Assembly: GCA_938075675.1 (NCBI GenBank)
Contig: CALJHE010000003.1
Span: 51,738 to 115,737, forward strand
Direction: 5' to 3'
DNA from: Candidatus Poseidoniaceae archaeon
GTDB lineage: Archaea > Thermoplasmatota > Poseidoniia > Poseidoniales > Poseidoniaceae
Length of the DNA stretch: 64,000 nucleotides
This document shows positions 13,441-64,000 of this stretch, piece by piece. How positions within the stretch are numbered: the first letter of the stretch is position 1; each line of letters begins with the position of its first letter. The notes under the pieces were generated by a model. That model did not search any database, was not told the DNA's origin, and was given only the letters and a program-made list of their open reading frames with translations. The translations under genes were made by a program, and so were the position numbers.

Positions 13441-13461
13441 CATTCTAGATGTGTGAAATTA

Positions 13462-26467: not shown

Positions 26468-26553
26468 ACTTTTTAATCCCCGTCCGTTGGCTATTTTCTG
26501 AGCCATCACGGCGCAACGGTTATGAGGGTCTCATTACTGGGGTTGTTTGACAG

Positions 26554-42508: not shown

Positions 42509-42565
42509 TTTCAGACAACCCATTATATCCAGAGTTCCGAGTGAACCTGCATAGGGGGGGTAGCA

Positions 42566-43971: not shown

Positions 43972-46900
43972 GTGTCTATTTTGAAGAACACAACATCACA
44001 CAAGAGCATATCGCTGGTCGCACTCCTTTTGCTTTCAACGCTAACAGGGCTTATTGCTATACCAACTGCATCTGCAGTGAATGAAACCAAGTCTGGAATC
44101 ATTACCGGAACTGAAACTTGGACAGGGACCATGAACCTTAACGGCGACGTTGTTGTTGCTGAAGGCGCTAAGCTTGTTGTCAACGCCGGGACAGTGATCA
44201 ATATCCCATACGGTTACTACATCGACGTCGAAGGTGCAATCTGTATCGGTGACAGTGCTTGTGGTGCGAGTTCTGGCTCATCAGGCAATCAAGCTCGGTT
44301 CATATGGTCGACTCCTACCGATTATACCATCCAAGGCCGATGCTACTCCAACAGCACAAGCAATCCAAACTACAACAGCGATACTGCTTGCGGATCAGGC
44401 ATGATTATTCGCTCAACGATTGACCAGGCGATTACTTCGCTGAAGTATGCACATTTTGAAAACGCATACGGTCATCCTTTCGAAACCAACCAAGTGAGTG
44501 GTATGCAATACGGTGCCTTGGTTTTCGATGGTTCTACAACCTCTGCACAGGGTCTGTCGTTTGACAACATCAATACTTCGAACGTTATGGCTATCGACCT
44601 TGCTGCGCCGAGTATCTCTGATTCCACCTTCACTCTAGGTGTCGATGGAAACGGATACGATGCAGCAGCAGTTCGTGCTTACGGTGCTGGTGCAGGTATT
44701 TTGGCTACAATGGAAGTCTCGAACTCTGTTTTTACAGGAGATACTGCTGCAGAATGTGGCAACGATGGTCGTAGCCTAATTTACGTCGAAAGTTCGTACG
44801 TAGATTTCTCTAATCTTGAAATCAAGGATAACTCCTATGGATTCTTCATGAAAGAAAGTTCGGGCTCGATTACTGACTCGGATGTTAACGTGAAGTGCAG
44901 TGGAATTGACACGAACTCTCACAAAGTCACGGGCACAATCAACCACACCCTTGTCATCAACGATAACACCATTACAACCGCAGATGGTTCTGGAATTACT
45001 GCCTATGACGGTGCGATTGTCGTTGCAGAGCGCAACATTATCTCCGGTGCAGCGTCTGGATCAGGCTTTGGTATCCGCTCCTCAACAGTTACCGCAAACA
45101 ACAACGTCATCGGCCCAATTGGTGGCTGGAACGGATTGTGGATTTACGGAACATCCGATGTTGTTGCGGAGAACAATACCATTCAGGACACAGCCAAAGA
45201 AGCTGTTCTCATTGGTGAATACCACTATCTCGACCAAGGATGGAATGTCCCAACACCAACAGCAGCCCGTCTTTACCTCGCCAACAACCAAATTTCAAAC
45301 AACACGGGTATCTGTAACTCTCAAATGTACGGTGGAGACTTCCAATGCCCTGCAATACACATGTTCATGTCTTCTGCAACCCTGTACGATAACACAGTCA
45401 CGAACAACGGTGGCGACGGAATGAGAATCAAAGCGAGCATCGTCAATGCTCAACGAAACACCATTGAAGTCTCTGGGTTTGCAGCCAACATTTCACTGTT
45501 CGATGATAACTACGGTAACAAGTACGGCTCAATTGCTTACTTCTCTGAGAACACATACACGAATGCGACACAGGTCTACAACATTACCGAATCCCGTGTT
45601 ACTGTACAGTCTGAATTCATCCCAGATGCGGGCGGTAACGAAATATATCCTGTGCAAATGAGTTGGCTTGGCCCTGAATGTCCATATGTTCTCGATGAGT
45701 GTTTGCAAGTTCCTCCAACTTCAATCATGCCTCCAGCCTTCATGCCTTTGGCTCTGGAAGTTGTCGAAAACTCCACAGTGTTCTCGTACGCAAACCTTCA
45801 GAACTTCGATTCCTCCAAGATTCACGTTCAGAACCAAAACTCCGCCTGGGGTAGCCAAGTTCGTGAAGGGGAACTTGTTCGATACCAAGTCAAGGCACAA
45901 AACAGCAACGTCGTTGACGCAACTGTAATCATCCGAGATGCTTCTGGATTGCCGCTTTACACACTCACCACAGATGCGTTTGGTTTCACGCCAGAAGTTT
46001 CACTCCCATCCGACTTCCTCCTCGACCGTAACTGGAATCACAATGTTGGAGAAACAAATGTCCAGATTCCCGGAGTCCTCGATTCCGAAGGCAATCCAGT
46101 CTTCATTGACGAAAATTCCTGCGCCGATGGATACGATAATGACGGAGATACCAAGGTCGACTCCGAGGATGGAGATTGTACAGGTGGCCGAGAGTTACCT
46201 TTCTACACCGTAGAAGCGTACAAATTTGGAAAGGGTCAGAAGGATTTCAATTTCGTTCTGAGTGGAGCCATCGACGATGTCATTAACCTCGTGAACTTGA
46301 AACCAAGCGTCACTGTGACTCAAAACGATGGATATTCATTCGCTACGACTGCCACTCTAACTGGAGGCGCATGGGATGGAATTTCGGGACCATATGCGCT
46401 CGACCAAATCGCATATGACAGCCAATTCGGTGTCGTTAAGCGTGTGGAGATTCAACCCCCTGGCTCTACCGATTGGTACAACGCCGTGGACACCTCGGGT
46501 GCGAACGGAATGGTTACGAAGTCGACGCATCCGTTCAAAACATGGTCGTTTGAATGGGATTTGTCAGCACATCCAGAGGGTGAGGGAGACGTCACCTTCC
46601 GCGTCCGTTCATATGACGGGTTGGACTACTCGCCTGTAGAAGTACGAAAGTACAAACTGAATCTCGTGGCTCCGACAACTCTTGTGAATTCGCCGGCTGA
46701 TGGTTCATCGCATACCAACGGCAAAGTGACATTCACCGGTACTTCCAGTGATCCGTATTCGGGTACATGGGGCAGCGATATCAAATCCATTTGGTTCGAC
46801 ATCAATGGTCCAAACGGTTACACTGCAAACTTCGATGTATCGGGTTCGACTGCATGGGCATACGACTGGATTTTCCAAGAATTGCAAACAGGGCAGTATG

Positions 46901-48369: not shown

Positions 48370-48428
48370 AGCATCTTCTGCTCACAGGAGCGGAAGTGTT
48401 GAAGAGTAGAAAAACGCGAGGTGAGAAT

Positions 48429-50954
48429 ATGTCTGTTCAACCAAAGCCAGGTGTGCAAGAAAGAATACTTCTGCACCTTCTTGATTATTCAGATTTTAAG
48501 AACAGTGTCGAAGTTCCTTTTGCTCTCTCCCAAATGGGGATTGCTAACGCAGTAGCGATTGCTCGATCGAACGTGCCTCGGGCAATTGCTGGACTCAAAG
48601 ACCAAGGTTTGCTTATCGAACGCCAAGCACACGTCACCGGCGTTTCTCGTAAGCGTAAAGCGTACTTTCTCACAGACCCAGGCATGAATGTCTCAGAAGA
48701 CACCTGGGAAAGGCTTCGTCATTTCCAACTTCGCAGTATAATGGACGATGGAGCGATTATCAATTCCACTCTTGGGGAAATCAACGACCATCTGGAATTT
48801 TCTATGCGGCCGGTGGACATTATTCGTTACATGGATGACAACTGCGTTTTGGATACTCGGATTCTCTCAGCAGACTTGGTGGAGCGTGACTTATCCAAAC
48901 ATGTGGAAAAGCAGTTGGTGACCGCGCTTGGAGATTTACCTCGATTACGGCACTTTTACGGTAGGGAAAAAGAACTCGACAATATGGCGAATTTGATTGA
49001 CGCCCGAGCTACAACACTGCTTATCCCGGGTATTGCAGGTATTGGAAAAACGACAATCGCTTCCAAGTTGATTGAGCGGTTTATGCATCGCCGGAATCTG
49101 TTGTATCACAGATGCCAGGATTGGGAAGGTTCTCGCTCGTTCTTCGAGTCGATTGCGGATTGGTTGGCTAACATAGGTGACTCAACCTTTGCAGATTACC
49201 TTGCTGCCACACCGGTACCACAACCTGCTGACGCTGCACGTCTCTTGGTTGACTCACTCGAGGGGACTCCAAGCTTGATTGTCATCGATGATTTCCACAA
49301 AGTTGCAGACACAACCCTCCACCAGACTTTCCAAGCCATGTCATTGGCTCTGCTTGGTAGTGAAGAGGAAATTGGTCTCGTGATATTCTCCCGTTCGTTC
49401 AAGCCCGTTGTCCCAACGAAGGATGCTGAAGGGCGTATTGCGAGTTTGGTTTTACCTCTCGATGGTCTTGATTCAGATGCTGGCCGTCAATTACTCACGA
49501 GTTTTGATAACCTGGGTGATGAGCAATGGCTTCACATTCACGGCTTATCGCGTGGCCATCCACTCGTTCTTGAGTTGATTAATCGGGGCGCTTCTGCAGG
49601 CGCTTTCCACGAAACCTTGGAAAATTACGTCACCGTGGAAATCTTCTCAAAGTTGAGCGCAGAGCAGAAACGAGTTTTGTCTGCTCTGGCAATTTATCGA
49701 GAACCAGTGATTCTGTCTGCACTTGCAGAACAAGGACTTGACACCGACGAACTTGATTCTCTTGTTGAACAAGGATTAGCCCGTCAGGGTGATGTTGATT
49801 TTTACGATGTTCACGATTTAATACGAGAGTTCTTGGTTCGTAGTCTCGATGAAAGTACTAAACAAGAATTCCATGCGAAGTGCTGCAACTGGTATGAAAA
49901 GCAGACTTCTGCACCTGCAATTTTGATTGAGCACATTTACCACCTCATCCGTTCCGGAAAGGGAGAAGAGGCGGCGGTTCTCATTGCAGAGCAAGGCCGT
50001 AATTTGATTGCGCAAGGTCACATGGAACTTCTTGGTTTGATGGAAGGCTTGACTATGGAAGACCTTGATAATCCTATACGCATGCGTGTACGTCAATTAC
50101 ACGGTGAATTGTTGGTTCTTCTTGGGCGGTTTTCAGAAGCAGAGACCGTTTTTGTATCCATCTCTCAACTGGACCCTCAATCGAAAGCGGTTCGGTTGAA
50201 TGCTGAAGTTCACTCCGCTCTCGCTGATCTTGCGCTCAAGCAGGGTGATGCAGACAAAGCACTTGCCATGCACCGGGAAGCATTGGAGAAGTTCATTGAA
50301 TGTGGAGATGCAAAAGGAGCAGCCCGATCATACAGCAACATGGGATACCTACTGCGCCGTAAAAATGATGTCTCGAAGGCTCTTGAAGCGTATGGGGAAG
50401 TTGAGAAAATCCTCAGTGAATCAGATGGAGTCGAACTGATCGGAACCCAACTGACCCTTGCTCGTGCTTTCCTTGAATTGAATGAGATTGACCGAGCACG
50501 AGACCATGCGCTCCAAGCCTTTGAAGTTTCAGACGATGGAAGTGATGTACTGCTTCATGCACGTGCACAAGCCGTACTTGGTCGATACTACGCAAAGGTT
50601 GGTGATGCAGATGTTGCTTCACACCACTACACTACGGCCCTGGAGACGATGAGCGTTGCAGGAGATTTGCTTTCACTGGTGGAAATTACTATTCTTCTTG
50701 GAGAAGTCCTACAAGATGCAGGGCGAGCAGAAGATGCGATGGAGCACTATCGTGAGGCCCTTGTTATTGCCGAGGCTAACGATCTGCGTATGCAAATTGG
50801 AGAACTACTTTCCCGTCTTGGTGGTGTTGCCCCTGATAAGCGTCGAAGAATGGAATATTTGCAAAGAGCCCTTGCGGTATTCCGCGAACTTGGTGCAAAG
50901 TCAAGGATGCGTGATGTCCAAGCCCAAGTCCATGCAGCAGTCATGGGTCGCTGA
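48429..50954 (+). CDS. STAND NTPase regulator: N-terminal winged HTH + NB-ARC-type ATPase + C-terminal TPR repeats
   Basis: wHTH (ERILLHLLDY...VPRAIAGLKDQGLL). Walker A GIAGIGKTT at about 49027-49055. Walker B LIVIDDFH. GHPLVLEL (GxP) motif. At least 8 TPR-like repeats. ATG at 48429 avoids overlap with the upstream gene. Confidence 0.6.
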   Translation: MSVQPKPGVQERILLHLLDYSDFKNSVEVPFALSQMGIANAVAIARSNVPRAIAGLKDQGLLIERQAHVTGVSRKRKAYFLTDPGMNVSEDTWERLRHFQLRSIMDDGAIINSTLGEINDHLEFSMRPVDIIRYMDDNCVLDTRILSADLVERDLSKHVEKQLVTALGDLPRLRHFYGREKELDNMANLIDARATTLLIPGIAGIGKTTIASKLIERFMHRRNLLYHRCQDWEGSRSFFESIADWLANIGDSTFADYLAATPVPQPADAARLLVDSLEGTPSLIVIDDFHKVADTTLHQTFQAMSLALLGSEEEIGLVIFSRSFKPVVPTKDAEGRIASLVLPLDGLDSDAGRQLLTSFDNLGDEQWLHIHGLSRGHPLVLELINRGASAGAFHETLENYVTVEIFSKLSAEQKRVLSALAIYREPVILSALAEQGLDTDELDSLVEQGLARQGDVDFYDVHDLIREFLVRSLDESTKQEFHAKCCNWYEKQTSAPAILIEHIYHLIRSGKGEEAAVLIAEQGRNLIAQGHMELLGLMEGLTMEDLDNPIRMRVRQLHGELLVLLGRFSEAETVFVSISQLDPQSKAVRLNAEVHSALADLALKQGDADKALAMHREALEKFIECGDAKGAARSYSNMGYLLRRKNDVSKALEAYGEVEKILSESDGVELIGTQLTLARAFLELNEIDRARDHALQAFEVSDDGSDVLLHARAQAVLGRYYAKVGDADVASHHYTTALETMSVAGDLLSLVEITILLGEVLQDAGRAEDAMEHYREALVIAEANDLRMQIGELLSRLGGVAPDKRRRMEYLQRALAVFRELGAKSRMRDVQAQVHAAVMGR

Positions 50955-50955: not shown

Positions 50956-51432
50956 TTATTCGTACGATTGCGGTCGGTCGTACTGCAATGATGTGACGCC
51001 GTCTGAGTGAACAACCCAAACCGAAGTTACTCCCGCCAATACGATGGTTCCTTCGTGGGATCCCGCACCTGTTCCTGATAGGGACACACTGGTGTCAAGT
51101 GTCCCTCCGTCGTGAATCAGTTCAATCGAGGTGTCGGTGAGTTGCAAAGTAATTCTTGCTTCATCCGCCTCGGTTAATCTCCATGTTACCTTTTCGGCGT
51201 ACTCGACTGCACCCATGCGGCTTGCTTCGTCAGCCCGTTCGACTGCCGCTGCCAAATCATCAAGATTTGATTGAATTGCATTTTCGTTCCACCGTTCTCG
51301 GGTTGCAGTTTCTATTTGGTATGCCCAAATACTGAATGTTGTAAGCAACAGCACTCCGAGTAGGAACGTGAATATGTAGCCAAGTTCAGTTGCTGCAGCA
51401 TGCTCATCTCTGCGAAGTTGATTTCTGTTCAT
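50956..51432 (-). CDS. small protein with archaeal class-III (pilin-like) N-terminus
   Basis: ATG at 51432 overlaps the stop of the upstream gene (ATGA). N-terminus MNRNQLRRDEHAAATELGYIFTFLLGVLLL. Confidence 0.45.
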   Translation of the reverse strand: MNRNQLRRDEHAAATELGYIFTFLLGVLLLTTFSIWAYQIETATRERWNENAIQSNLDDLAAAVERADEASRMGAVEYAEKVTWRLTEADEARITLQLTDTSIELIHDGGTLDTSVSLSGTGAGSHEGTIVLAGVTSVWVVHSDGVTSLQYDRPQSYE

Positions 51433-53639
51433 GAGACCGCCTCCGTCATATGAGCATTGAGTGCCGCCATTTGAAGCGTAAATTGTATTGGTTCTCCATT
51501 GGTGTGCCAAACGGCTTCTGATGTGCCATACGAGGGGTCGGGAACCCATCCGACATAATCGGTGAGTAAGTCGATACGTCCTGGATAAATGGTCCAGTCT
51601 TCACTTGCTTCAAGACCGTCTGCAGATGATTCTGCAATGGCTACTCCGTACGGTTTCGACCAACCCCTTCTGACCTCGTAGGCTGTGGCTGAGGCCAAAG
51701 ATGAACGGTCAACAAGTTCAATGTCGAGATTCATTTTTCCTGCACCACTTACGCTGTCTGCAGTCGGGTGAAGCGATGGAATCGTAGCGGCAAATCGTGG
51801 CCCAGGTCCTCCACGGTCCGACGGTGAAACGACAATGTAGGGTTCAAATTCCGGATGGTTCGTGACTACAGCACCACCTGCATAGGCCACTTCCATCCCA
51901 ACGATTGAGGATTGGAACTCATAACTTAGTCTGGAAAGGTGGAAACCCCATACTGTCCCGAGTGTGGCATGACTTGATGCTCCGTTTTCGCCAATCAGAC
52001 TAATCTGCATACTTGCAGGGTGTGTTCCAGCCCTCCATGCATTCTGAAGGTCAACTTGGCTTCTTCCGCTCATTGATTGCCAAGGGAGTGCAGAACTGAT
52101 CCATCCACTTGCTTGAACATTAATCGGTAAGCAACGTTGGGCACCATCATGCATAGCTTGGAGTAAACCTTCTTGGCCTCGAATAGAATATACGCGCAAT
52201 GAATCCCCGTCGCTCACATTGATTTGGGTTATGCCTTGTTCGAGTTCAACCGTTTTGTGATTCACATTCTCGAGGAATGTGCCGTTTGCAACGGTGCTAC
52301 CGGTCATGTTCCATTCTGTGTAGTATCCAGCATGGGTCATGTGGAGTCTATGAACTCCTGATTGACTGTTGTGGAATGTGTGTAATTGTCCAGAAAGTGC
52401 TCCGGTATCATCTGCTGGTTCGACTTGCAGTCCTGAGCCGCTTGAATTCTTTCTCCATGTGACGAAGATGTCGCCGTTTGCATCTAGCATTGGCGCTCCA
52501 TCGATATCGGCAGGAGGCCATGGGAAGGATGTACTTTGGTTTGCTGCAACTGAGAGCCCACCGCCTCTCCACGTGACTGTCACGCTGTCAGTGCTGGGGT
52601 TGGAGAACACGAGTTCTCCCTCGAGTGAAGGGCTGATGAAGGAGTGGCCGAGATATTGACCATCGGTACTGGGTAACGCCATCTGGCCAGTCGTCGAGTT
52701 CGTGTTGGTTTGCAGAATCAGTCTTGATGGTGAACTGGTCGAGATGTGGACCACTTCTGGCGAGGATGTGCTCAATTGGTGATTGAAGTCAACTCCTACT
52801 CGGTTTTGGTTGGATGGTAAGGCATAGAATGTGTTCGTAGTATCGTTTTGAATCGTAATTTGGTTTGCTGTTTCACTGAGAATCTGGATTTGATTCTCAC
52901 CGGCAGGTAGAGGAATCGACCATGAGCTTCCTGTCGAATCGACAGGGTTTGGGTCGTTGGATTGCATCACTGTCGTCCCTCCACTGCCGACCGAGAGAAG
53001 TAGGTGCAATTGGTGAGAGGAGTGAATGGTTGTTTCACCAAGTTCACTCATGTCCAGAACACGCATGCCATCGACCATCAATTTCAGTTCCGACAATGTT
53101 TCGCTGCCATCCATGACTTCCACATCGATCGGTCCGAGCGGAAGGGCAAGCCCTGGAGATGCTGTAAGAAGGACCTCATCGACCCACTCGGGGATTGTGA
53201 ACATGTACGGGTTCGCAGGACCGAGTCTCAAGTCATCGATACAAACTGCTGTATTCATCGATTCAGGGTGACGTATTCGTAGTTCATCGTCGTAGTCAAG
53301 TGCGCCTTGGACACGGAACGAGGTGTCGTCGGCCCAAGTCGCCGAATACCACATACTGCTCTGCATCATGTTCCAGTTGAGCGTTCCGTCAACCGGTATC
53401 AGGCTAATCTCTGTAGAGTCGCCAGGCATTCCTGTTTCACTCAATGCAGCAGTTTGGTGTGCCAGCAGAGTCATTTGAGCCGACATGTCGTGACGTTCTA
53501 TCGAGCCTTCGAGCTCTTCGATAACAGGTATCATGGATACCATCATCATGGCGATAATCGACAGTACGCCACCGAACAGGAGTACCGTTGCGACGGCTGC
53601 TGACACCGCACTTTCATCTCGCTGGAGCATGGATTTCAT
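51429..53639 (-). CDS. large (736 aa) protein with archaeal class-III (pilin-like) N-terminus
   Basis: N-terminus MKSMLQRDESAVSAAVATVLLFGGVLSII. Start overlaps the upstream stop in ATGA. Remainder is an extracellular beta-rich domain. Confidence 0.5.
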   Translation of the reverse strand: MKSMLQRDESAVSAAVATVLLFGGVLSIIAMMMVSMIPVIEELEGSIERHDMSAQMTLLAHQTAALSETGMPGDSTEISLIPVDGTLNWNMMQSSMWYSATWADDTSFRVQGALDYDDELRIRHPESMNTAVCIDDLRLGPANPYMFTIPEWVDEVLLTASPGLALPLGPIDVEVMDGSETLSELKLMVDGMRVLDMSELGETTIHSSHQLHLLLSVGSGGTTVMQSNDPNPVDSTGSSWSIPLPAGENQIQILSETANQITIQNDTTNTFYALPSNQNRVGVDFNHQLSTSSPEVVHISTSSPSRLILQTNTNSTTGQMALPSTDGQYLGHSFISPSLEGELVFSNPSTDSVTVTWRGGGLSVAANQSTSFPWPPADIDGAPMLDANGDIFVTWRKNSSGSGLQVEPADDTGALSGQLHTFHNSQSGVHRLHMTHAGYYTEWNMTGSTVANGTFLENVNHKTVELEQGITQINVSDGDSLRVYSIRGQEGLLQAMHDGAQRCLPINVQASGWISSALPWQSMSGRSQVDLQNAWRAGTHPASMQISLIGENGASSHATLGTVWGFHLSRLSYEFQSSIVGMEVAYAGGAVVTNHPEFEPYIVVSPSDRGGPGPRFAATIPSLHPTADSVSGAGKMNLDIELVDRSSLASATAYEVRRGWSKPYGVAIAESSADGLEASEDWTIYPGRIDLLTDYVGWVPDPSYGTSEAVWHTNGEPIQFTLQMAALNAHMTEAVS

Positions 53640-54721
53640 CGTGAAACCTCCACACGCTTAACATCGACTTCGAGAATAAGTTGATTTTCTTGCGATTCGA
53701 CAGTGAATCCATCGGCACCACTTGCTCGAAGATACGGTGCGTATCCAGTAAATGTGTCCAGTGTTCCGGACGCCCTGTTCAGCGTATGTTCTTCCAGCAT
53801 CTTGTCGTGGTATTGCGGTGTGATGACATCATTAAGCGCATTTTCAACAGTGAATTGGAGGTGGTATGCATTGCCAGTAAACAGCGTCATAGGACCAAGC
53901 GAAACCATGTTCATGCCGATTTTTTCCCCTGAGCCTATTGAGCCGTTAATGATGACATCTGTGAGAACAATCGACAAACGCAACTCACCAGTAACCAGCG
54001 TGTCGAGTTCGATGTTGGGGAATTGGGATACCTTCCAAGGTTCATTCGGGAATCTTTCAGCTCGAGCGTCATTCACCAAAGCAATTTCATGTTCCCCTAG
54101 TCCGAGTGAGGTTGAAATTTGAATGCCGGATACGATGTACGAAACGCTCGTGTGCAGAGCACGTTCGTCAGCGTCGAACACAGTGACAGTCATCCAGTGG
54201 TCTTGAGAGGACTGATGTTCGATCACAACTTCATTGAATGAACCACTGAATGCATGGGATTCGATACCCAGTGGGCTTTCGATTGATACGCTTCGAGCAG
54301 TTTCATTGATGGCTGTAATGCCAATTGCTGAGTTGTTGATGTTACGAACAGTAATTCGCTCATCTGGAGTTAAATCTGCAGCAATCGTCCAAGTTTCAAC
54401 TTTGATGACCGGTTGAACCATTGTCGACTTGAGTGCCAATGTATGTCGGATGCCTGTGCCTTCTGGTGCGCTTCCAGCCACATCGATTCTGTCTTCAAAA
54501 CGGTCAGCAATTCCGTTCGCACTGTTCCAGTTTGTGTTGTCTTCGAAATCAGAAATGTAGGGGCTGAGGAAAATCCACACCCCTCCCATGATTGTGACGA
54601 CCATAGCCAGCATCATCACGACCCCGAGAACCTCGCTGACAGCCCTTTGGTCTCGGCGAAGAGACGGGCGAAGTACAGAGGGGTGGTGTGCGTTCACAGA
54701 CAGCACAACCTTTGGTATCAT
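53636..54721 (-). CDS. protein with archaeal type IV pilin-like N-terminal domain (DUF1628-like)
   Basis: N-terminus ...LRRDQRAVSEVLGVVMMLAMVVTIMGGVW closely matches the archaeal pilin consensus (RAVSEVIGVILMVAITVIL). 361 aa. Confidence 0.55.
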   Translation of the reverse strand: MIPKVVLSVNAHHPSVLRPSLRRDQRAVSEVLGVVMMLAMVVTIMGGVWIFLSPYISDFEDNTNWNSANGIADRFEDRIDVAGSAPEGTGIRHTLALKSTMVQPVIKVETWTIAADLTPDERITVRNINNSAIGITAINETARSVSIESPLGIESHAFSGSFNEVVIEHQSSQDHWMTVTVFDADERALHTSVSYIVSGIQISTSLGLGEHEIALVNDARAERFPNEPWKVSQFPNIELDTLVTGELRLSIVLTDVIINGSIGSGEKIGMNMVSLGPMTLFTGNAYHLQFTVENALNDVITPQYHDKMLEEHTLNRASGTLDTFTGYAPYLRASGADGFTVESQENQLILEVDVKRVEVSR

Positions 54722-54768: not shown

Positions 54769-55680
54769 TTAGTGCTTCTTCGGCTGGATGTCCGATGCGT
54801 TGGGTTGTTCCTCCGTTCGGCCGATATAGTGGGAGTTTTCGGGGCCATCTTGGAGTGATATTGTGATGTCCCCACTAAACACTTCGTCGATGTGATACAA
54901 AACTGTGGATTCAGCTAAGTGTGGTTGATTGTTCTTTTCTGAAAGGTGAGTCAAGGAAATACTGCGTGTGGCCGGTGTACAAACTTGTGCCAAGAATTGG
55001 CCGGTTTGGTCGTTGGATAAGTGACCTCCTCGTCCACTGATGCGGTCTTTCAGCGAGAACGGATACGGTCCGTTCATCAAACGGTTGTGGTCGTAGTTTG
55101 CTTCAATTGCTATGTGCTCACATCCTCGAACATGAGTGATTAATTCATCCGTCCAAGAACCCAAATCTGTGATGACTGCTGCCCTTTGTCCGTTGTGGCT
55201 GGCAACAAAGGCGACATTATCTGCTCCCGAATGAGGTACTGGCACAGGTAGGATCGAAAGGTCGTCACTGACTTGAATCAAATCCAGCGAGTCAAAATAA
55301 TGTGTTAATTCTGTTTGTAGGCCCAACTCTTCTGCGGTTCGATGGTTTGCTTGAACTTTCATCTTCCAACGTTTTTGGGCGACCAGTGCGCCACCACCAT
55401 GGTCTCCGTGATGGTGACTAACGAAGATGTAATCAATTTCAGTTGGATGGATGTTGAGTCGAGCAAGTCGTTTCTCTAATTGTGCTCCACTGAATCCTTG
55501 ATCGATGAGAACTTTCGCCTGTTCGGTCTCAAGCAAAGTAGCGTTTCCGCGACTGCCTGTTCCGAGGTGGGTCAGTACCATTGTCATCTCAATCGTGTCT
55601 ACTGGTCGCGAGAGGCCTTTGAAGACACCGCCTTTTCCGTTTGAATTGTCGCCCTTTCCGGTGTATCTCACTTCTTCCAT
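54769..55680 (-). CDS. MBL-fold metallo-hydrolase
   Basis: HHHGDH metal-binding motif. A likely true start is the internal ATG at about 55587 (MTMVLTHLGTGS). A G/C-rich hairpin separates it from the downstream pilin-like gene. Confidence 0.6.
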   Translation of the reverse strand: MEEVRYTGKGDNSNGKGGVFKGLSRPVDTIEMTMVLTHLGTGSRGNATLLETEQAKVLIDQGFSGAQLEKRLARLNIHPTEIDYIFVSHHHGDHGGGALVAQKRWKMKVQANHRTAEELGLQTELTHYFDSLDLIQVSDDLSILPVPVPHSGADNVAFVASHNGQRAAVITDLGSWTDELITHVRGCEHIAIEANYDHNRLMNGPYPFSLKDRISGRGGHLSNDQTGQFLAQVCTPATRSISLTHLSEKNNQPHLAESTVLYHIDEVFSGDITISLQDGPENSHYIGRTEEQPNASDIQPKKH

Positions 55681-55820: not shown

Positions 55821-58800
55821 ATGCGACGAAGTATAACCACTCTTCTAACAACCCTTGCTGTTGTGGCAAGTTTGCTTTTCATGTCCCAATTTCCGGCTGT
55901 TTCATCGGTGTCGAATCTTCACCCAGATACGACGGATGGTTCTAAACCGCCGACGACGGACACCGATGGGGATAAAATTCCAGATGTTCACGAAAACCTA
56001 TTCTCAGAATGGATGAATTGGACCGCAGTGGACGGACGTGCGGTCGTTATAGAAGGCATGGACAGCAATGACGCATCGGACGCTTTGATTGATTCGGATA
56101 TGGATGGGTTGAATGCGACAGAGGAATATTGCTGGCCATATCCTGCCAACTGTACAGCCCCAGGTTTCCCACGTGGATTAACAGGTACAGTGGACGATGA
56201 AGGTGAACGTTCGTATCTTGACCCCCGTATTGCAGACACCGATGGTGATGGGATGCCAGATGGTTATGAAGCCTACATGTGTGAACGTGTTGGCGGATAC
56301 AATGTCTTCTCGTTCAAGTACGAATGCAATACATTTGATCCACTCAATGCTTCTGATTTGTATGATGATCCGGACGAGGACGGTTTTGATGTTAATCGGG
56401 ACGGAGTTTTATCCACGACGGAACGATTTTCCTCACCGGAAGAATACATTTACGGTGCTCCAGATAACCATACGAATGAGCTCGACGGCCTTTGGTGCTC
56501 TGCAACATTACCCGAAGGTTCTGTGTTTGAAAATTGGCCGTTCATCCCGACTGGTGCAAACGCTACATTCCAAAACATTCTCTCAGCATGCACCGAGAAT
56601 GCTACTATGGTTATCGACGAAGATATCTGGCTTGGGACCGACCCACTACTTGCTGACTCTGACCGCTATCATTGGGATGGATATTCCATTCGCCGTTTAT
56701 TCCCGTCATTTGGTGACGGTATTCCCGACGGCTGGGAAGTCCACTTTGGCCTCGAGCCATTGAACAGAACCAACGCTTTACTTGACCCAGACAACGATGG
56801 ATGGGATGCAAACCGTGACGGTGGCGTATCTCCGGATGTTAGCCGCACCCTCACTGCCCTTGCTCTCGGTGAATCACTTTCGACACTTGAGGAGTATTAT
56901 GTCCATGATGACAATGGCAATTCAGTTCTTCCAGGCATGAAAACAGCCCTTCTCGGGACTCAAGATGACAGCGTTGAATATGTGCCGCTGAGTTTTAATT
57001 CGCCATCAGATGAGATGAGTCTCATCCATTATGATTTACGCGACATGGATGCAGACAGTACAACGGTCTATGCAACAACGCGCTACGGTTTGACCGTCTT
57101 TGATTACGACGAGATGTTAAGCTCTGACCATTGGATGCCAGAAGGCATTGAATTGCATTCGTCCTTGCTACTTGCTCAAGATGGCCAAAACTTCGCTTTA
57201 GCCATCGCCTCCAGTGCTGGCCTTGCTGTGGCGCCTCTACAAGCAGACGGAGACTTGGGCCCATTGAATACGTGGTCTTGGTCTCTTTCCGAGGAACTTT
57301 TTGCGCTCACAGTACTCGCCATTGACGGTCAAAACACTCACGTTCTTGGTTTGGGTGATGCCGGTGAAGGTTCGGTATTCGAGATTTCATCTTCTGCTGA
57401 AATTGCAGACCAATTTGCGATTTCTCCCGATTTAGAAACTGCGCTGCGACAATCAAACGCTTCAGTTACGCATTTAGCTCACGGCCCTGCAGGTGGAGGT
57501 GCAAACATGCTCTTTGTCGGTACTGACCGTGGATTACTGTCCGGTGAGACAACCACTGCCCGTGATGAGTTCGAAGCCAACTGGAGGTTTTTCTATACCC
57601 CGGAAACGACACCATTCCCTACTGCAATCGATGAGCTGCGTTCGCTTTCGCTTGGCATGGTTGCGAACCCTGCTGAAGTTCGAACCATGATTCTCGATGG
57701 TCCGAATGCTGCAAATGCACAGGTCCTATGGTTCGGGACACCATCAGGTGTTCACATGCTGAACTTGGTGGATAACTCAATCTCCCATAGTGGTCTATTG
57801 GAACACCCTGGTGTTGAAGGACGATATGTTCGCGAGTACAACAACATCCACTCACTGCACACAACCGGTGACGAAGTGTTGGTTGGCTCAGTCAAAGGAA
57901 TGTGGGCAATCTCCGGTGATTATTCTGCAGTCTATGGATTCCAAGAGCAAGAAACCATCTACGGTGAAATAGTGACCATTCAATCGTTGCTCATCGACGG
58001 GAACACCACCGTATTGACCGGTTCATCCCCTGGGCAATATGCTAATCTTGAACTCATCAACCCGGGTGCAAATGACTCCGATAACGATGGAATGCCTGAC
58101 GGCTGGGAAGTCGCAAACGGTTTAGATCCAACCGATCCTTGGGATTCACTGTTCGATGCGGACAGCGACGGCCTCGACCTCGATCAAGCAGACGATGGAT
58201 TCCTTGAGAGACTGTGGACGAACCTTGACGAATACAGATTTGTATCTAACTCCCTGAACGGGTATAATTCAACAAATCCGAAGGTCGGCGACACCGATGG
58301 TGATGGCTTAGGTGATGGAAGCGAATATTTCGGTTTCTTCTATGAGACCTCTAACCTGTGGTGTCACTATACTGTCCAAATGGAATACGTCTGTGGTGAT
58401 GCGGCGGGATTGGCAGCAAACGATACCTATCTTGCCTTGTCAAGCAGCGATCGAGGTACCGACCCGACAAACTTCGATAGTGATGGCGACGGAATGCCTG
58501 ATGGATGGGAAATTGAACATCGCAGGTGGATTGGTTCTTCGTTCAACGGAGGCAACAATTGGACACTTGACCCGAACCGTGCAGATGATGCAAATTGGGA
58601 TGCTGATCGAGATGGACTCGCAAACTTGTGTGAGTACCAATGGTCTGTAGTCCGCAATGCTGCAGTTGATGGACTGTTGTTCGAATCACATGGCGAGTCT
58701 GTCAATTCAAGCATGGAATGGTTTGATGCAGATCCAAACAACATCGATTCTGACGGAGATTCATTGCCAGATGGTTGGGAATCAGGGGGCTCGTGCACAT

Positions 58801-61574
58801 GGGATCCTTCTCGGCAAGGTGTCAATCCACTCAATGCATCGGACATCTTTGAAAACCCTGATGGCGATGGATACGATATCAATCACAACGGTATTCTTGA
58901 GGAGAATGAGGCATTTGTCAACTACCTCGAATTCCATGTTCGTTCGGACTTGTTCAATGCAAATCAAACCCTTGCTGGAGTCCCTCTTCCTGATGGATTC
59001 AGCACGGACTTGTTTACCAATATCAGCCTTAACGGCGCTCCAGAGGCAACGTTCGGCGAGCGTGCTTCTGGTTCGGTCACGGCTCTTCAATCAAGAACAA
59101 GTGTAGGTTCATCAGACCCATTGAATGCGGATTCTGATGCCGACGGAATGCCGGATGGGTGGGAAATCTGGTTTGCACGATGGAACATTTTGGACGATGC
59201 CTGGACATTGAATCCGCTTGATTCTTCTGACCGCTGGCAAGATGCCGATGACGACGGGATGGCAAATTGGGAAGAATACAATGCGATTGCCCCTGAGTAT
59301 TCTGAGACTGATCCGGATCGCTCTGCACCTCAATGGTTCGTTACGACCGTTGGTTCGGCATTTGCACTACAGCAGTGGCCTGGAAACAGCGTTGAATACT
59401 CTTTTGGCTCGTTCATTGAATCGGACCAAATCAATATCTCTGGTTGGACATCCGATCCAAATAATGTTGATACAGACGGGGACGGTATGATCGATGGAAT
59501 TGAACAATTGTTCACTTCGTGGAATCTGTCTGCAGGGCGCTGGACTCTGAATCCGTTGGTTGCTGGTGATGGCTTGTTCGACGGTGATGGTGACGGACTT
59601 ACCGACAGCCAAGAATTTGCTGTTGCGACAGAAAACCCCGAGAATGGGGTGGAACATCCATCTGACGCTCCACTGCTCCACTTAGACGGTGATGTACAAC
59701 AGCCTACCGAGAAAGCCCAGCGTGTATTCAATATTCTGATTACCAAAGAAACTCGTGGCAAGAGATTGCTGGCAGATTTTAATGACTGGCAAGCCGGAGT
59801 GCCTCCGAACGCAATTTTATCGACGCTCTTAGGCATGTCAGATCCGACAAATCCGGATACTGATGATGATGGCATGTATGATGGCTTCGAATACTGGTTC
59901 ACTGAATGGGATTTAGAGGAGAATCGTTGGAGCATGAATCCACTCATTGACAGCGACGTTAATCTCGATTCTGATGGCGATAGTTTCGACTGCGATGGTG
60001 ACGGTAACATCTCAATGGACGAGCGATTCTCGAATTTACGTGAATGGGAATCAAGAACCTATGGCAAGTATAGCGAGCGCTTCTCAGTACCACCTGCTGC
60101 AGGTCTCATCGACTTTGGCGAAGATGCGATTCAAGCTTATATGGAGGAACTTGGTTTTACTTCAGCACAGGCACAACAAGCGTTGTATGTTGACTTTGCA
60201 TCGAAGAGTCAAGAAAGTTCAGACAGAATGCTTATGATTAACGAATTCAATGAAGAGAACTTCAACCGAACTTTACTCGGAGTTGCTGACCCGACCGATA
60301 CTGATTCTGACTCTGATGGTATCGATGACGGTTGGGAATATTGCTATGCACTGTATGGAATGGATGACCCGACCACAATCAACCACTGGGCTTCCAATCC
60401 ACTCAATCCTTGGGATGTAAACTACGATGGTGACCATGATGGATGGTACGACCGCTCAGCGTTTGATCAACCTGCTGAACAGGGAACGTGGCTTGAACGT
60501 ACTTTTACACCAAGTACGTCCATCGTACAGTCGGGTGTCGGCGACTTGCCGTTCACCAATTGGATGGAATGGGATAACCAAACACGCCCCGACTTGAACG
60601 ATTCTGATGGTGATAGTGTCTCGTATACAACAGTGGTTTCAAACGGACAAGTTGTTTCACACGAGCAAGATTTCAATCTTTCAGATGGTCGTGAAGTATT
60701 CAAGTATGGAATAAATCCAAGCGATAACGATTCCGATGGTGACATGATTCCAGACTGGTATGAATATGCGAAGGCTTGGAATGAAGATAATGATAACTAC
60801 AGTACATTCATGCAAATTCGAGTGGTATGGATTGATGCTGCTACTGGCGGAGCATGTACAACAGATACGAATTCATGTCTTCCACTCTCACAACAGGGAG
60901 CAGAGGGTGTCTTATCTCGTCCAGAGTTGTCGTTTACATGGTTTACCATGAATCCTGCAGACCCGCTTGATGCAAACTTTGATCCTGACCAAGACGGTAA
61001 TTGGGACTGTTCTGGTGCAGGTTGTGTTTACGAACCTTACACCAACTTCCAGGAATTTTTTGCAATCACGACACCTGACCTTTCTTCACCGAATGCAGTG
61101 CGCCTTAGTGGCCTTATCTACGACGGGGAAATTGTTCTGGAATGGTGGCAACTACGGGCTGCTTTGCTGAAATTGGATGAGACCGGTTCAAGCGCAGAAA
61201 ATTACCTTAAGATGGACAAATCGTTCGGAAATGATATTCGGTTTGCATATGTGGTCGATGACAAGGATACGAACTTCCTTCTTTTGGATTCGAGTAATGA
61301 TGAAGTATTGCTTGCAGGAAATCTTACTGATGCTTGGGAAATTTACTATGTTGGCTCTCCAAATACCGCCCCAGTGCGTTCCGTTGGCGAGCATGAATTC
61401 GGATGGTATCTCTTGGATTATGATAACGACCACATTGCTGAAGGAACGGATCCAACCAATTGGGATTCGGATGGCGATTGGATGGTTGACTGGTTTGAAG
61501 TTCATGATGACGAAGAAGACGGCATCCGTGGAGACTCATCTCCGATTCGTTATGATTCACGCCAAACCGGATGA
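55821..61574 (+). CDS. giant secreted Ca-binding repeat protein (thrombospondin-type-3-like DxDxDGxxDxxE repeats, >20 copies) with central beta-propeller-like region
   Basis: Signal peptide. Repeats include DTDGDGMPDGYE, DSDGDGMPDGWE, DSDADGMPDGWE, DTDGDGMIDGIE, DTDDDGMYDGFE and DSDSDGIDDGWE. No C-terminal TM helix. Confidence 0.6.
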   Translation: MRRSITTLLTTLAVVASLLFMSQFPAVSSVSNLHPDTTDGSKPPTTDTDGDKIPDVHENLFSEWMNWTAVDGRAVVIEGMDSNDASDALIDSDMDGLNATEEYCWPYPANCTAPGFPRGLTGTVDDEGERSYLDPRIADTDGDGMPDGYEAYMCERVGGYNVFSFKYECNTFDPLNASDLYDDPDEDGFDVNRDGVLSTTERFSSPEEYIYGAPDNHTNELDGLWCSATLPEGSVFENWPFIPTGANATFQNILSACTENATMVIDEDIWLGTDPLLADSDRYHWDGYSIRRLFPSFGDGIPDGWEVHFGLEPLNRTNALLDPDNDGWDANRDGGVSPDVSRTLTALALGESLSTLEEYYVHDDNGNSVLPGMKTALLGTQDDSVEYVPLSFNSPSDEMSLIHYDLRDMDADSTTVYATTRYGLTVFDYDEMLSSDHWMPEGIELHSSLLLAQDGQNFALAIASSAGLAVAPLQADGDLGPLNTWSWSLSEELFALTVLAIDGQNTHVLGLGDAGEGSVFEISSSAEIADQFAISPDLETALRQSNASVTHLAHGPAGGGANMLFVGTDRGLLSGETTTARDEFEANWRFFYTPETTPFPTAIDELRSLSLGMVANPAEVRTMILDGPNAANAQVLWFGTPSGVHMLNLVDNSISHSGLLEHPGVEGRYVREYNNIHSLHTTGDEVLVGSVKGMWAISGDYSAVYGFQEQETIYGEIVTIQSLLIDGNTTVLTGSSPGQYANLELINPGANDSDNDGMPDGWEVANGLDPTDPWDSLFDADSDGLDLDQADDGFLERLWTNLDEYRFVSNSLNGYNSTNPKVGDTDGDGLGDGSEYFGFFYETSNLWCHYTVQMEYVCGDAAGLAANDTYLALSSSDRGTDPTNFDSDGDGMPDGWEIEHRRWIGSSFNGGNNWTLDPNRADDANWDADRDGLANLCEYQWSVVRNAAVDGLLFESHGESVNSSMEWFDADPNNIDSDGDSLPDGWESGGSCTWDPSRQGVNPLNASDIFENPDGDGYDINHNGILEENEAFVNYLEFHVRSDLFNANQTLAGVPLPDGFSTDLFTNISLNGAPEATFGERASGSVTALQSRTSVGSSDPLNADSDADGMPDGWEIWFARWNILDDAWTLNPLDSSDRWQDADDDGMANWEEYNAIAPEYSETDPDRSAPQWFVTTVGSAFALQQWPGNSVEYSFGSFIESDQINISGWTSDPNNVDTDGDGMIDGIEQLFTSWNLSAGRWTLNPLVAGDGLFDGDGDGLTDSQEFAVATENPENGVEHPSDAPLLHLDGDVQQPTEKAQRVFNILITKETRGKRLLADFNDWQAGVPPNAILSTLLGMSDPTNPDTDDDGMYDGFEYWFTEWDLEENRWSMNPLIDSDVNLDSDGDSFDCDGDGNISMDERFSNLREWESRTYGKYSERFSVPPAAGLIDFGEDAIQAYMEELGFTSAQAQQALYVDFASKSQESSDRMLMINEFNEENFNRTLLGVADPTDTDSDSDGIDDGWEYCYALYGMDDPTTINHWASNPLNPWDVNYDGDHDGWYDRSAFDQPAEQGTWLERTFTPSTSIVQSGVGDLPFTNWMEWDNQTRPDLNDSDGDSVSYTTVVSNGQVVSHEQDFNLSDGREVFKYGINPSDNDSDGDMIPDWYEYAKAWNEDNDNYSTFMQIRVVWIDAATGGACTTDTNSCLPLSQQGAEGVLSRPELSFTWFTMNPADPLDANFDPDQDGNWDCSGAGCVYEPYTNFQEFFAITTPDLSSPNAVRLSGLIYDGEIVLEWWQLRAALLKLDETGSSAENYLKMDKSFGNDIRFAYVVDDKDTNFLLLDSSNDEVLLAGNLTDAWEIYYVGSPNTAPVRSVGEHEFGWYLLDYDNDHIAEGTDPTNWDSDGDWMVDWFEVHDDEEDGIRGDSSPIRYDSRQTG

Positions 61575-61640
61575 ACGAAGTCTCACCCGTAGGGGTATAA
61601 TTCAAAGGCCATAGCGCCTGTGGTTGCACGGGGAGCAGAT

Positions 61641-64000
61641 ATGCAAAACGAAATTTCCAGTGGGCGCGGCATTATGTTCGTACTTTTTTTCATCATGGTC
61701 CTGTCTCCAATGGGCCCTTTGGCGGAAGTTTTCGTTGGTTCAGCAGATGCTGCAGGTGTATCTCGCCACGTCTATGAGTTCAGTGACGGTTCGACAGAAC
61801 ACGTTGCATTGTATCAAGGTGCGAATCCTGATATTGGGGCTGAAATCTCTTTGCCCAAAGGGGCACTCGTCACTGAAGTTTCAATGACACTTTCTGGAGC
61901 GTCTGCGACAGGATGGAGCCAATCAGTTACCGATGACCGTGATGAATGGTTTGCTGGTAGCGCCTCTTCAACCGACTCGCGAAGCGGCGATTTGAGCCTT
62001 GAGTTGGCAAACAGTTCTTCGAACTTCTTCGCACACGGATACGATGAAACTACAAATCCAACTTCTGATGCATGGCTGGACAACGGCTCATATGCTGTTC
62101 GGCAACCTCACACCTCCAACTCGACAGAAAGCAGATTTTCTCAGCAAGTCCTCAAGTCCTCGAATGCAATGATGAAACAAAGTCAGGGTGCAGTACTCAA
62201 GCATCACGACTGGTTGTTCATGTCAACTTGGAGTTCCTCAACGTTCCAAAACATTGTTCACAGACTCTATCCTAACAATGCTACGAAAGAATCGGTCATT
62301 ACATTGGACCAAGCCCAATGCACTCTTCCAAATCTACACTCATCCTCATACTATGCAAACTATGGATTCCGAGATTGGACGATTACCGATGATGAGCGTA
62401 TGTTTGCCATATTGTCAGGATACAAATACCACTATTCATCTTCAGCACCGACGCAGTACCATCGCGTTTTAGAAATGGATATCTCAAGGGATGATGTTTG
62501 GACCTGTATAGACTCTTATGATGTGTCTCCGCAGTATTCTGACTATACTGCAATTGCATACGATCGCACGACGGAAGATGTTTGGATTGTACACAACGCA
62601 CAGCGAAGGATTGTTCCTTACACATTCGGTGAAACTCCTGATGGGACATACACTCGTGGAGATGACATGTATTCGTATTCATCCACATCTGGTAGCTCTT
62701 GGGAGTGTGGCAAGACTGGACAACAAGTTCGCGGGTTGGAAGTGAACGAAACGACGTTCTTCATGCGTTGTCAAAAAGGCTCAACGAGCCAAGACAAGGA
62801 CCAACTGGAAGCATGGACCATCTCTGGATCCTCAACTTCTCTGGTTCCTCAGTCCGGAACACGCCTCCTTTCAGCACTCGGTTATGGATTGCAATTTGAT
62901 GGTTCACGGTTTGTCACAATTGATTGTGGCTACTCGACCTGGTCGTCCTCGACGCTTTACTATCGTGAATATGGCACTGGATGGCAATTCAAGACCACGC
63001 CTGCGCCTGGCACTACCACTTGGCTTGGTCCGATGATGAAATCCAGTGAACCAGTACTTGCTGCAAACATGCAGACCTACTGGTCGGCAGCATCGATTGG
63101 TGACCGTGTTGATTACTGGATTTCTGCCGATAACGGCACGCATTGGGAACCAGTAACATCCAATTCGACGATTCACTTTGATTATCCCGGTACGGAATTG
63201 ATTTGGAAAGCACAACTCATTGGTTCAACAGCAGTTTCATGGTGGGTTGATGTCGAATCTGCCACAGAATATGCCACCTCTGGCAGTTGGACTTCACCGC
63301 CACAGGTCACGGGTACCAAGGTCGGTAAGGTTCGCCCCAACTGGCAAGCAGATGTTCCAGCAGGGACTTCTGTTCTTGTACAAGTTTCAAACGATAACGG
63401 TTCATCTTGGTTGCCTGCCCTTAACAATCAAGAAGTCAGTTTCCCATCTACCGAAGCAGGCGATACCATTCGCTACGCAATCAGTATGACCTCATCCGAC
63501 GCTTCCCTGACTCCGCTCATTGATTCAGTAACGATGGAGTACGAAGAGGGCTATCCCGATCGACCCAAGATTGATATCGGCAACGACCTTATTTGGGATT
63601 GGGAATCGGTTCTCTTCCTCAACGAATCATCCGTTATTGCCAGTGATATGTCCATCGTTAATGCTGAAGTCAAGTCGCAACCTACACTTGTTCAGGCGTT
63701 TAATTCATTTATTCCTCAGAACGGTGACGGTGATGTCACCATTCCGATAGCCATTAAGGCAGCAACACCAGGACGTGTGAAAATCTCCAATATTGATGTT
63801 ACATACAAGTTACAGACGAGGGCGGTAGATGCCTCACTCGAAGGTGGAATGATTTCCCCAGATGGAGTTTTCAGAAATTTGCATGTTCGGGTTGCGCCCG
63901 GGGATGATGTCGACCGTGTGACAAGTGCACTTGTGGCACTTGACAATTCATACGGTGAAAACCCTGAATTTGAATGGGAACGTGGTGACACATGTTCAGT
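61641..64000 (+). CDS. secreted hypothetical surface protein, partial (continues beyond window end)
   Basis: I translated this frame myself from ATG 61641 (MQNEISSGRGIMFVLFFIMVLSPMG...). There is no stop codon through position 64000. It is not in the ORF track because it is unterminated. A TATA-like GTATAATT lies about 35 nt upstream. Confidence 0.5.
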   Translation, partial: MQNEISSGRGIMFVLFFIMVLSPMGPLAEVFVGSADAAGVSRHVYEFSDGSTEHVALYQGANPDIGAEISLPKGALVTEVSMTLSGASATGWSQSVTDDRDEWFAGSASSTDSRSGDLSLELANSSSNFFAHGYDETTNPTSDAWLDNGSYAVRQPHTSNSTESRFSQQVLKSSNAMMKQSQGAVLKHHDWLFMSTWSSSTFQNIVHRLYPNNATKESVITLDQAQCTLPNLHSSSYYANYGFRDWTITDDERMFAILSGYKYHYSSSAPTQYHRVLEMDISRDDVWTCIDSYDVSPQYSDYTAIAYDRTTEDVWIVHNAQRRIVPYTFGETPDGTYTRGDDMYSYSSTSGSSWECGKTGQQVRGLEVNETTFFMRCQKGSTSQDKDQLEAWTISGSSTSLVPQSGTRLLSALGYGLQFDGSRFVTIDCGYSTWSSSTLYYREYGTGWQFKTTPAPGTTTWLGPMMKSSEPVLAANMQTYWSAASIGDRVDYWISADNGTHWEPVTSNSTIHFDYPGTELIWKAQLIGSTAVSWWVDVESATEYATSGSWTSPPQVTGTKVGKVRPNWQADVPAGTSVLVQVSNDNGSSWLPALNNQEVSFPSTEAGDTIRYAISMTSSDASLTPLIDSVTMEYEEGYPDRPKIDIGNDLIWDWESVLFLNESSVIASDMSIVNAEVKSQPTLVQAFNSFIPQNGDGDVTIPIAIKAATPGRVKISNIDVTYKLQTRAVDASLEGGMISPDGVFRNLHVRVAPGDDVDRVTSALVALDNSYGENPEFEWERGDTCS

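Follow-up and report, generated by a model that had tools for sequence, protein, structure and literature searches.

Near the end of a 64,000-nucleotide stretch of DNA from a Candidatus Poseidoniaceae archaeon (contig CALJHE010000003.1), here called the window, one open reading frame (ORF) at positions 55821 to 61574 on the plus strand, which opens with ATG, encodes a protein of 1,917 amino acids that is rich in acidic residues and in calcium-loop motifs. The locus raises the question of whether this giant protein belongs to a variable surface island, as an earlier note on the DNA proposed, or is a fixed part of the cell. Comparison with related genomes supports the second view: across the order Poseidoniales, the Marine Group II (MGII) archaea, the giant is encoded by a core gene under tight conservation. 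Its conservation and architecture together therefore argue for a conserved part of the MGII surface with a structural or adhesive role and not for a variable or decoy protein. In the reading that we consider probable on balance, the giant is an essential, Sec-exported, acidic surface protein, probably N-glycosylated and disulfide-bonded, in which arms of calcium loops flank a ligand-binding propeller and which serves a structural or adhesive role.

Relatives of the giant are numerous and similar in length. A protein database search returned 322 matches, of which the best 120 are near-full-length proteins of 1,727 to 2,039 amino acids, almost all between 1,875 and 1,946. These share 40 to 97% identity with the giant, mostly over 99 to 100% of its length (full-length orthologs as a whole span 39 to 98%), and those that are named carry the labels Poseidoniaceae, Thalassarchaeaceae, Poseidoniales or the MGII-era 'Euryarchaeota'. 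Even the orthologs furthest from the giant (39% identity, 1,957 amino acids) carry the label Poseidoniales. When one genome per GTDB species was scanned, relatives turned up at no fewer than 413 loci, the 80 best of which all belong to Poseidoniales. An alignment of 34 sequences is nearly gapless, with the calcium-loop arms more conserved than the propeller, which is the least conserved region of the protein. An exhaustive HMMER search with the C-terminal half of the giant against 1.8 billion cluster representatives recovered members of the family and their fragments. The other matches are unrelated giants whose likeness to it is confined to the short thrombospondin type 3 (TSP3) motif; among them are LamG/RCC1 or TIR proteins that carry canonical TSP3_bac arrays.

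Ratios of nonsynonymous to synonymous substitution (dN/dS, by the Nei-Gojobori method) are 0.024 for the giant at a dS of 0.60 and 0.049 at a dS of 0.18, compared with 0.020 for a STAND-family regulator encoded nearby. Identity to four relatives is 97, 83, 64 and 44% for the giant; in the same order it is 98, 87, 74 and 54% for the STAND protein and 95, 89, 71 and 51% for a neighbouring hydrolase with a metallo-β-lactamase (MBL) fold. A β-helix giant encoded in the same gene block gives 97, 79, 47 and 38%, and this gene and the pilin-like genes of the block diverge faster than the giant. The sequence of the giant is already public as a 'hypothetical' or 'thrombospondin type 3 repeat-containing' protein. 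In addition, widespread 'thrombospondin' genes in Poseidoniales have been noted, with a proposed function in adhesion (Rinke et al. 2019, PMC6461757). What is new is therefore the characterisation and not the existence of the gene.

These observations bear directly on the suggestion that the giant lies in a strain-variable surface island spanning 26.5 to 64 kb and diversifies by gain and loss of repeats under pressure from phages or grazers. Such an island would account for the clustering of surface giants in the window. The earlier estimate that more than 24 kb code for proteins above 1,400 amino acids holds, since four proteins of 1,630, 3,207, 1,465 and 1,917 residues sum to 24,657 nucleotides. 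It would also fit the presence of a tRNA-Met gene (anticodon CAT; 26395-26469, plus strand) near the proposed start, the faster divergence of the β-helix and pilin-like genes, and the variable presence between lineages of the pilin-like genes and of a second large ORF downstream. However, synteny is fixed. Wherever flanking sequence is available among the best 80 of the at least 413 loci, the neighbours keep one order with hardly any change in their offsets, and the order is shared by both Poseidoniales families. No gain or loss of repeats is seen in the nearly gapless, length-constant alignment, no tandem repeats were found in the gene at the DNA level, and dN/dS stays at 0.02 to 0.05. GC content is flat across 26 to 64 kb, at 0.47 to 0.50. 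Among possible mobility markers at the proposed borders, the tRNA-Met gene is the only one. No integrase or shift in composition accompanies either the tRNA-Met gene or the tRNA-Asn gene (GTT; 13461-13535, minus strand); the housekeeping genes for CDP-archaeol synthase (CarS) and PurD follow, inside the proposed bounds.

The island reading is thus contradicted between species, because synteny is fixed, identity tracks that of cytoplasmic neighbours, dN/dS is low and GC content is flat. Conservation across strains, which the earlier note had itself named as an argument against its label of a typical variable cell-surface island, is what the comparison returned: full-length orthologs, near-constant length and fixed gene order. 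We therefore consider an island origin for the giant highly improbable.

The most prominent feature of the conserved sequence is its series of calcium-loop motifs. Strict D.D.DG motifs occur 19 times, where composition-preserving shuffles give 0.31 on average and never more than 3. The full consensus D.D.DG[MIL].DG.E is present in eight copies and in none of 1,000 shuffles, and [DN]x[DN]x[DN]G sites number 29 against 1.15 in shuffles. The series of DxDxDG motifs is therefore genuine and lies well outside what chance would produce. Aligned with 33 orthologs, the protein has 29 distinct loop sites, of which 7 lie on the N-terminal side of residue 360 and 22 on the C-terminal side of residue 745. 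All three acidic positions are 100% conserved at 28 of these sites and 94 to 100% conserved at the remaining one. At most of the 28 sites with invariant D1, D3 and D5, position 9 or 12 is also acidic and conserved, and the canonical 12-residue EF loop DxNxDGxIxxxE fits four sites, at residues 190, 1019, 1390 and, in part, 329. Loops of the DxDxDG type bind Ca2+ in many structural contexts. With the core and an extra acidic ligand both conserved among homologs, the sites of the giant have the sequence features of DxDxDG calcium-binding loops, an EF-hand-like motif class, and are predicted to act as such.

The first description of this protein, as a Ca-loop-rich product with a signal peptide encoded amid other giant surface proteins, is supported. 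Its account of a dense, regular repeat series survives in part. The motif series exists, but it is neither regular nor tandem, with motif-encoding stretches that are 60 to 87% alike over 38 nucleotides and are spaced 48 to 1,371 nucleotides apart. A hidden Markov model (HMM) built from one unit (residues 1098-1157) reveals that the true repeat is a module of about 55 amino acids containing two loops. Its pattern is [ST]DPxN-DxDxDG[MIL]xDGxE, a short helix, WxxW(T/S)LNPL, and a second DxDxDG that ends in E[EY]. About 10 full copies and 3 to 4 partial ones are present, or about 10 to 13 modules, and unique inserts of roughly 50 to 90 amino acids separate them.

The modules are distributed over two arms. 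The N-terminal arm (residues 42-330; 55944-56810, plus strand) has seven conserved DxDxD loops in approximately three two-loop modules. It includes the EF-hand-like DxNxDGxI...E loops at residues 190 and 329 and three likely disulfide pairs. The C-terminal arm (residues 747-1895; 58059-61505, plus strand) has 22 conserved DxDxD loops, mostly in the two-loop modules of about 55 amino acids, and its inserts are helical or β. No structural neighbour for the C-terminal 1,177 residues was found in the PDB, and a PDB sequence search with the full giant gave only chance matches, to neocarzinostatin at an E-value of about 0.06.

The loops had been called thrombospondin-type-3-like, with the eukaryotic Pfam model PF02412 (TSP_3) named as the check. 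That model fails to match the giant even at E≤10. The only family found by a Pfam scan of the giant is the bacterial TSP3_bac (PF18884), which scores 23.1 bits (E=6.6e-5) over six stretches against a gathering threshold of 25 bits. Three orthologs (P0098, P0057 and P0081) exceed the threshold at 28.0, 30.2 and 50.9 bits, respectively. Thus, the loop motif is only borderline 'TSP3' and is organised as a distinct two-loop module. Readings of the loops as dockerin or RTX repeats were rejected; no such Pfam matches are found, and the module holds a β-hairpin between two loop-helix units.

A few DxDxDG/TSP3_bac loops also occur in two other secreted proteins encoded on the minus strand of the window. 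One (16670-21562) is a 1,630-residue protein with six lamin-tail domains (LTDs) and a phospholipase D-type (PLD) nuclease/phospholipase domain, and carries four loops near residues 1342 to 1469. The other (23167-24966) is a 599-residue CBM5/12-like protein with a TSP3 unit at its end.

Between the two arms lies the region for which β-propeller-like periodicity had been suggested, and here the suggestion proves correct. In an AlphaFold2 model computed with a 39-sequence alignment, residues 365 to 740, approximately (56913-58040, plus strand), are predicted with a local confidence score (pLDDT) above 90. The region is all-β and forms seven four-stranded blades closed by an N-terminal velcro strand. 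Foldseek returns seven-bladed propellers at E-values of about 1e-8 to 1e-9, including the BT4663 periplasmic sensor (4a2l) and BtuG. A profile built from the propellers of 19 orthologs and run against PDB sequences matches three independent structures of hybrid two-component sensors (3v9f at 5e-14, 4a2l at 6e-11 and 3ott at 1.5e-4). Some family members match the Pfam models PorZ_N_b_propeller, Reg_prop and HVO_0234-like propeller, with weak Reg_prop matches in 3 of the 19 members (best E=0.11). The model, the profile and the Pfam matches therefore place the propeller in the Reg_prop/PorZ class. It shares ancestry with the propellers through which PorZ and the hybrid two-component sensors of Bacteroides bind their ligands. 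Characterised members of this class, including BT4663-type propellers, bind glycans or glycan signals, and by analogy with BT4663 and PorZ the propeller of the giant may bind a glycan as well.

Both ends of the giant are unusually well conserved across the order. The N-terminus, with the consensus MRR[SK]QT...MSQxPAxS, contains a predicted Sec-type signal peptide or signal anchor (residues 1-29, MRRSITTLLTTLAVVASLLFMSQFPAVSS; 55821-55907, plus strand). This assignment relies on conservation and on the segment being the sole hydrophobic one, as none was found past residue 30; the segment may be cleaved off or may stay as an anchor. The C-terminus is a conserved acidic tail (...HDDEEDGIRGDSSPIRYDSRQTG; 61506-61571, plus strand) that reads ...RGDSSPIRYDSRQTG and has the order-wide consensus ...DDExDGxRG[DN]S-SPIRYDxRxT. 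Neither a C-terminal transmembrane (TM) segment nor a PGF-CTERM-like sorting signal was found in the giant, and the tail is a candidate docking peptide. A C-terminal TM segment and cytoplasmic tail are present in all the other giants: the LTD/PLD protein, a fusion protein containing the oligosaccharyltransferase AglB, the β-helix protein, a CARDB protein and the ortholog of the downstream ORF.

The conserved tail contains R-G-[DN]-S. In Poseidoniaceae this reads RGDS, the tetrapeptide by which eukaryotic integrins classically bind and which occurs also in thrombospondin type 3 repeats. Because no integrins are known from archaea, the C-terminal RGD(S) is not read as functional, and its likeness to the integrin-binding tetrapeptide is probably a coincidence.

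The composition of the giant is extreme. Aspartate makes up 12.1% of its residues and aspartate plus glutamate 18.5%, compared with 0.9% for lysine and 4.2% for lysine plus arginine. Twelve of its 16 cysteines are conserved at 85% or more. N-x-S/T sequons number 28, where 17.9±3.8 are expected, and 16 of them are conserved at 70% or more. Their density is 1.46 per 100 residues, compared with 0 to 0.9 in cytoplasmic neighbours.

A sequence of events consistent with the favoured reading of a structural or adhesive surface protein can be outlined. The polypeptide would be exported unfolded by Sec. Outside the cell, its loops would load Ca2+ from seawater, where the concentration is about 10 mM, and the arms would then fold and stiffen. 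The AglB encoded nearby would glycosylate the protein, and disulfides would lock it. The propeller would act as the ligand-binding head, with a glycan the most plausible partner, or else another surface ligand. Retention at the surface could rely on the N-terminal hydrophobic segment, on docking of the C-terminal tail onto an anchored partner, or on both. These means of retention are proposed because the giant lacks the C-terminal TM anchor found in every other giant of the window.

Several points weigh against this picture. Binding of Ca2+, glycosylation, cleavage of the signal peptide and retention at the surface are all inferred, and no experimental or expression data for any member of the family were found in the literature searched. 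AlphaFold2 confidence is low for residues 1 to 360 and for parts of the C-terminal arm, so the geometry of the 'arms' is not established. The low conservation of the propeller fits a ligand-facing surface but would equally fit a mere spacer, and a Pfam scan of the propeller from the window alone matches no family, Reg_prop included. Finally, an adhesin that viruses and grazers can reach would not usually show so low a dN/dS along 1,917 codons, and the very strong purifying selection may instead reflect a lattice or scaffold role.

This last point leads to the alternative that the giant is the main lattice-forming, S-layer-like envelope protein of Poseidoniales. It would then make up an abundant acidic coat, glycosylated and crosslinked by Ca2+, in which the propeller and modules make lattice contacts instead of binding external ligands. 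Conservation across the whole order, near-invariant length and very low dN/dS would be expected of a protein with many self-contacts, and a lattice or scaffold role would explain the extreme purifying selection and length invariance better. The signal peptide, the enriched sequons, the extreme acidity and a place in the conserved block that also encodes the AglB oligosaccharyltransferase agree with such a role. In addition, no known fold was found for the C-terminal arm. Literature searches on an MGII S-layer, metaproteome, genomic islands or surface proteins yielded no description of the MGII envelope and nothing that concerns the family of the giant in particular. On the other side, typical euryarchaeal S-layer glycoproteins and the neighbouring giants carry a C-terminal TM anchor or PGF-CTERM-type signal that the giant lacks. 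S-layer proteins usually diverge fast, and calcium loops and a sensor-type propeller are foreign to the domain repertoire known from them. We consider an S-layer-like role for the giant unlikely, though it is the main rival to the favoured reading.

A broader version of this idea extends to the genes around the giant. Together with AglB, a protease and the β-helix protein, the giant might constitute the principal MGII envelope scaffold, a Ca2+-crosslinked, glycosylated acidic coat made of two-loop modules and of a 1,170-residue region without structural relatives. If true, a novel kind of archaeal cell wall or S-layer would exist in one of the most abundant archaeal groups of the surface ocean, which is still uncultured. 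We judge this proposal to be something of a long shot.

The gene block itself is shared by MGIIa and MGIIb. As read in two MGIIb loci (L001 and L002) and three MGIIa loci (L003 to L005), its common order is an AglB/STT3 giant, an S8 subtilase, a β-helix giant, a regulator with HTH, STAND and TPR domains, an MBL-fold hydrolase on the minus strand, and the Ca-loop giant. In the window, the conserved upstream part (32885-48369, plus strand) consists of the AglB/STT3 giant of 3,207 amino acids, the subtilase and the β-helix giant of 1,465 amino acids, in the same order as in the MGIIb locus L001. The AglB/STT3 fusion (32885-42508, plus strand) starts with approximately 15 TM segments, continues with a very large extracellular part that bears CarboxypepD_reg-like domains, and ends in a C-terminal TM segment. 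It is strongly enriched in sequons (49 versus 27±4 expected), and the MGIIb block is headed by the same fusion at about 3,171 amino acids.

The regulator-like gene follows (48366-50954, plus strand). Its product combines a Crp-like HTH domain with STAND (AAA_16) and TPR regions and resembles regulators of the MalT/AfsR type. It is conserved in the block in both families and has the lowest dN/dS there (0.013-0.020), and is a candidate regulator of the cluster. The MBL-fold hydrolase (54769-55680, minus strand) is divergently transcribed from the giant and is its immediate neighbour in both Poseidoniales families.

Only two elements of the block are lineage-specific: the downstream ORF and a trio of minus-strand genes that includes the pilin-like ones (50956-54721). 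The trio is found in all Poseidoniaceae loci and is missing at the equivalent position in MGIIb. Its products are 197 or 158, 736 and 361 amino acids long. The smallest ORF, called at 197 residues in the window, overlaps the 736-residue gene by 121 nucleotides, and its relatives are called at 158. The two large products are type IV pilin-like (DUF7289/Pilin_N) and unusually large for such proteins, with N-termini that resemble class III signals ('RDQRAVSEV...' and 'RDESAVSAA...').

The proximity of these genes raises the possibility that the giant is an accessory adhesin, for example Ca2+-dependent and located at the tip or along the shaft, of a fibre that resembles a type IV pilus and consists of the DUF7289 proteins. 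Roughly 1 kb upstream, the opposite strand carries the two large pilin-like genes, which are syntenic with the giant throughout Poseidoniaceae and whose products have class III-like N-termini. However, MGIIb retains the giant and the rest of the block without pilin-like genes at the locus. Furthermore, the giant itself has a Sec-type rather than a class III N-terminus, and no gene for a pilus ATPase or platform protein was found in the block or nearby. An association with pili is improbable in light of these facts, and the structural or adhesive role outlined above remains the reading that we prefer.

The other lineage-specific element lies immediately downstream. As the earlier note had it, a further ORF with a signal-like N-terminus begins at 61641 on the plus strand and runs off the window at 64000. 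This 5' part consists of 786 open codons and includes an N-terminal hydrophobic segment. It is 62% identical to a 1,808-residue protein in the MGIIa locus L003, and its counterpart in a 97%-identical relative (L006:13602-19148) has 1,848 residues. These orthologs of about 1,800 to 1,850 amino acids combine a signal peptide with just one C-terminal TM segment, near residues 1681 to 1705, and a cytoplasmic tail of about 140 residues. From this architecture, the downstream ORF is therefore a conserved type I membrane giant that is truncated by the end of the window. Pfam and PDB sequence searches with the orthologs gave no match, and the protein of about 1,850 residues contains two Asp-box-like motifs (SADNGTHW and SNDNG[ST]SW). 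Homologs number 172, all apparently from Poseidoniaceae-type metagenome-assembled genomes. The ORF is absent from MGIIb and from one subclade of Poseidoniaceae (MGIIa), the loci that lack it being L032, L034, L046, L055 and L058.

Three of the giant type I surface proteins end their cytoplasmic tails in a similar tryptophan-rich 'PGW...W' motif. It is found in the LTD/PLD protein (16670-21562, minus strand; CPGWSEETIQTYLDQGWPMDELAAYY), in the β-helix protein (43972-48369, plus strand; HPGWIWDSESNNWVPDPNY) and in the L006 ortholog of the downstream ORF (LPEGWTLDQWNHFGWQYVE), and may be a shared intracellular docking signal. Past the position where the window ends, relatives encode a lipoprotein-like product of about 265 amino acids (L003:21738-22544 and L006:19647-20438) with the zinc-metalloprotease motif HEFGHLLG and a weak Peptidase_M10 match. 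A conserved cytoplasmic protein of about 150 amino acids is also encoded downstream of the block in relatives, and in MGIIb it directly follows the gene for the giant.

Poseidoniales are among the most abundant archaea of surface seawater and are still uncultured. For this group, the generic label of a variable surface island can be replaced with a specific target, a predicted extracellular protein of about 200 kDa whose length and architecture are almost constant across the order. Because of this order-wide conservation, the giant is a good candidate for a marker or antigen of MGII cells. Viruses might also use it as a receptor, and it offers an entry point to the biology of the MGII envelope and to the role that seawater Ca2+ plays there.

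The giant can be compared with four known systems, each of which it resembles in part. Like archaeal S-layer glycoproteins such as csg of Haloferax volcanii, it combines a signal peptide, acidity, many sequons and a link to AglB with a likely dependence on divalent cations. Unlike them, it lacks a C-terminal TM segment or PGF-CTERM signal and an array of Ig-like or β-sandwich domains. No similarity in sequence or fold to any solved S-layer protein was found.

The propeller resembles those of the Bacteroides hybrid two-component sensors (4a2l, 3v9f and 3ott) and the N-terminal propeller of PorZ, which share with it seven blades and the blade motif 'LW(F/I)GTxxGL'. In contrast to these sensors, the giant has a single propeller instead of a tandem pair, and has no YYY domain, TM segment or kinase/response-regulator output. 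Its propeller sits between arms of calcium loops, and sequence identity to the sensors is only about 10 to 14%.

Eukaryotic thrombospondins and cartilage oligomeric matrix protein (COMP), whose type 3 repeats form a calcium 'wire', share the aspartate-rich loops of the DxDxDG type. They are secreted, disulfide-bonded glycoproteins, as is predicted for the giant, and the conserved R-G-D/N near the C-terminus of the giant is another point of likeness. However, PF02412 goes unmatched in the giant, no structural similarity to the calcium 'wire' was found, the C-terminal L-lectin domain is absent, and the modules are organised differently.

Bacterial TSP3 proteins (PF18884) such as CglD and MtsD of Myxococcus xanthus share the pattern DxDxDG[MIL]xDGxE followed by G/LDP, and are extracellular, cysteine-containing and associated with adhesion. 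The HMMs for CglD (NF033765) and MtsD (NF047639) match the giant in the motif regions only, at 41 and 21.5 bits, where the cut-offs are 400 and 800. Canonical members of TSP3_bac have tandem arrays of 22 amino acids that score 80 to 390 bits, whereas the 23.1 bits of the giant come from loops dispersed in modules of about 55 amino acids. Unlike proteins of the CglD/MtsD type, the giant has no lipoprotein signal and, in the Pfam scan, no VWA/integrin-like domain. The closest functional analogy for the giant is with the Ca2+-dependent TSP3/COMP-like region of CglD, which in Myxococcus goes together with Ca2+-dependent adhesion (bioRxiv 10.1101/2023.10.19.562135).

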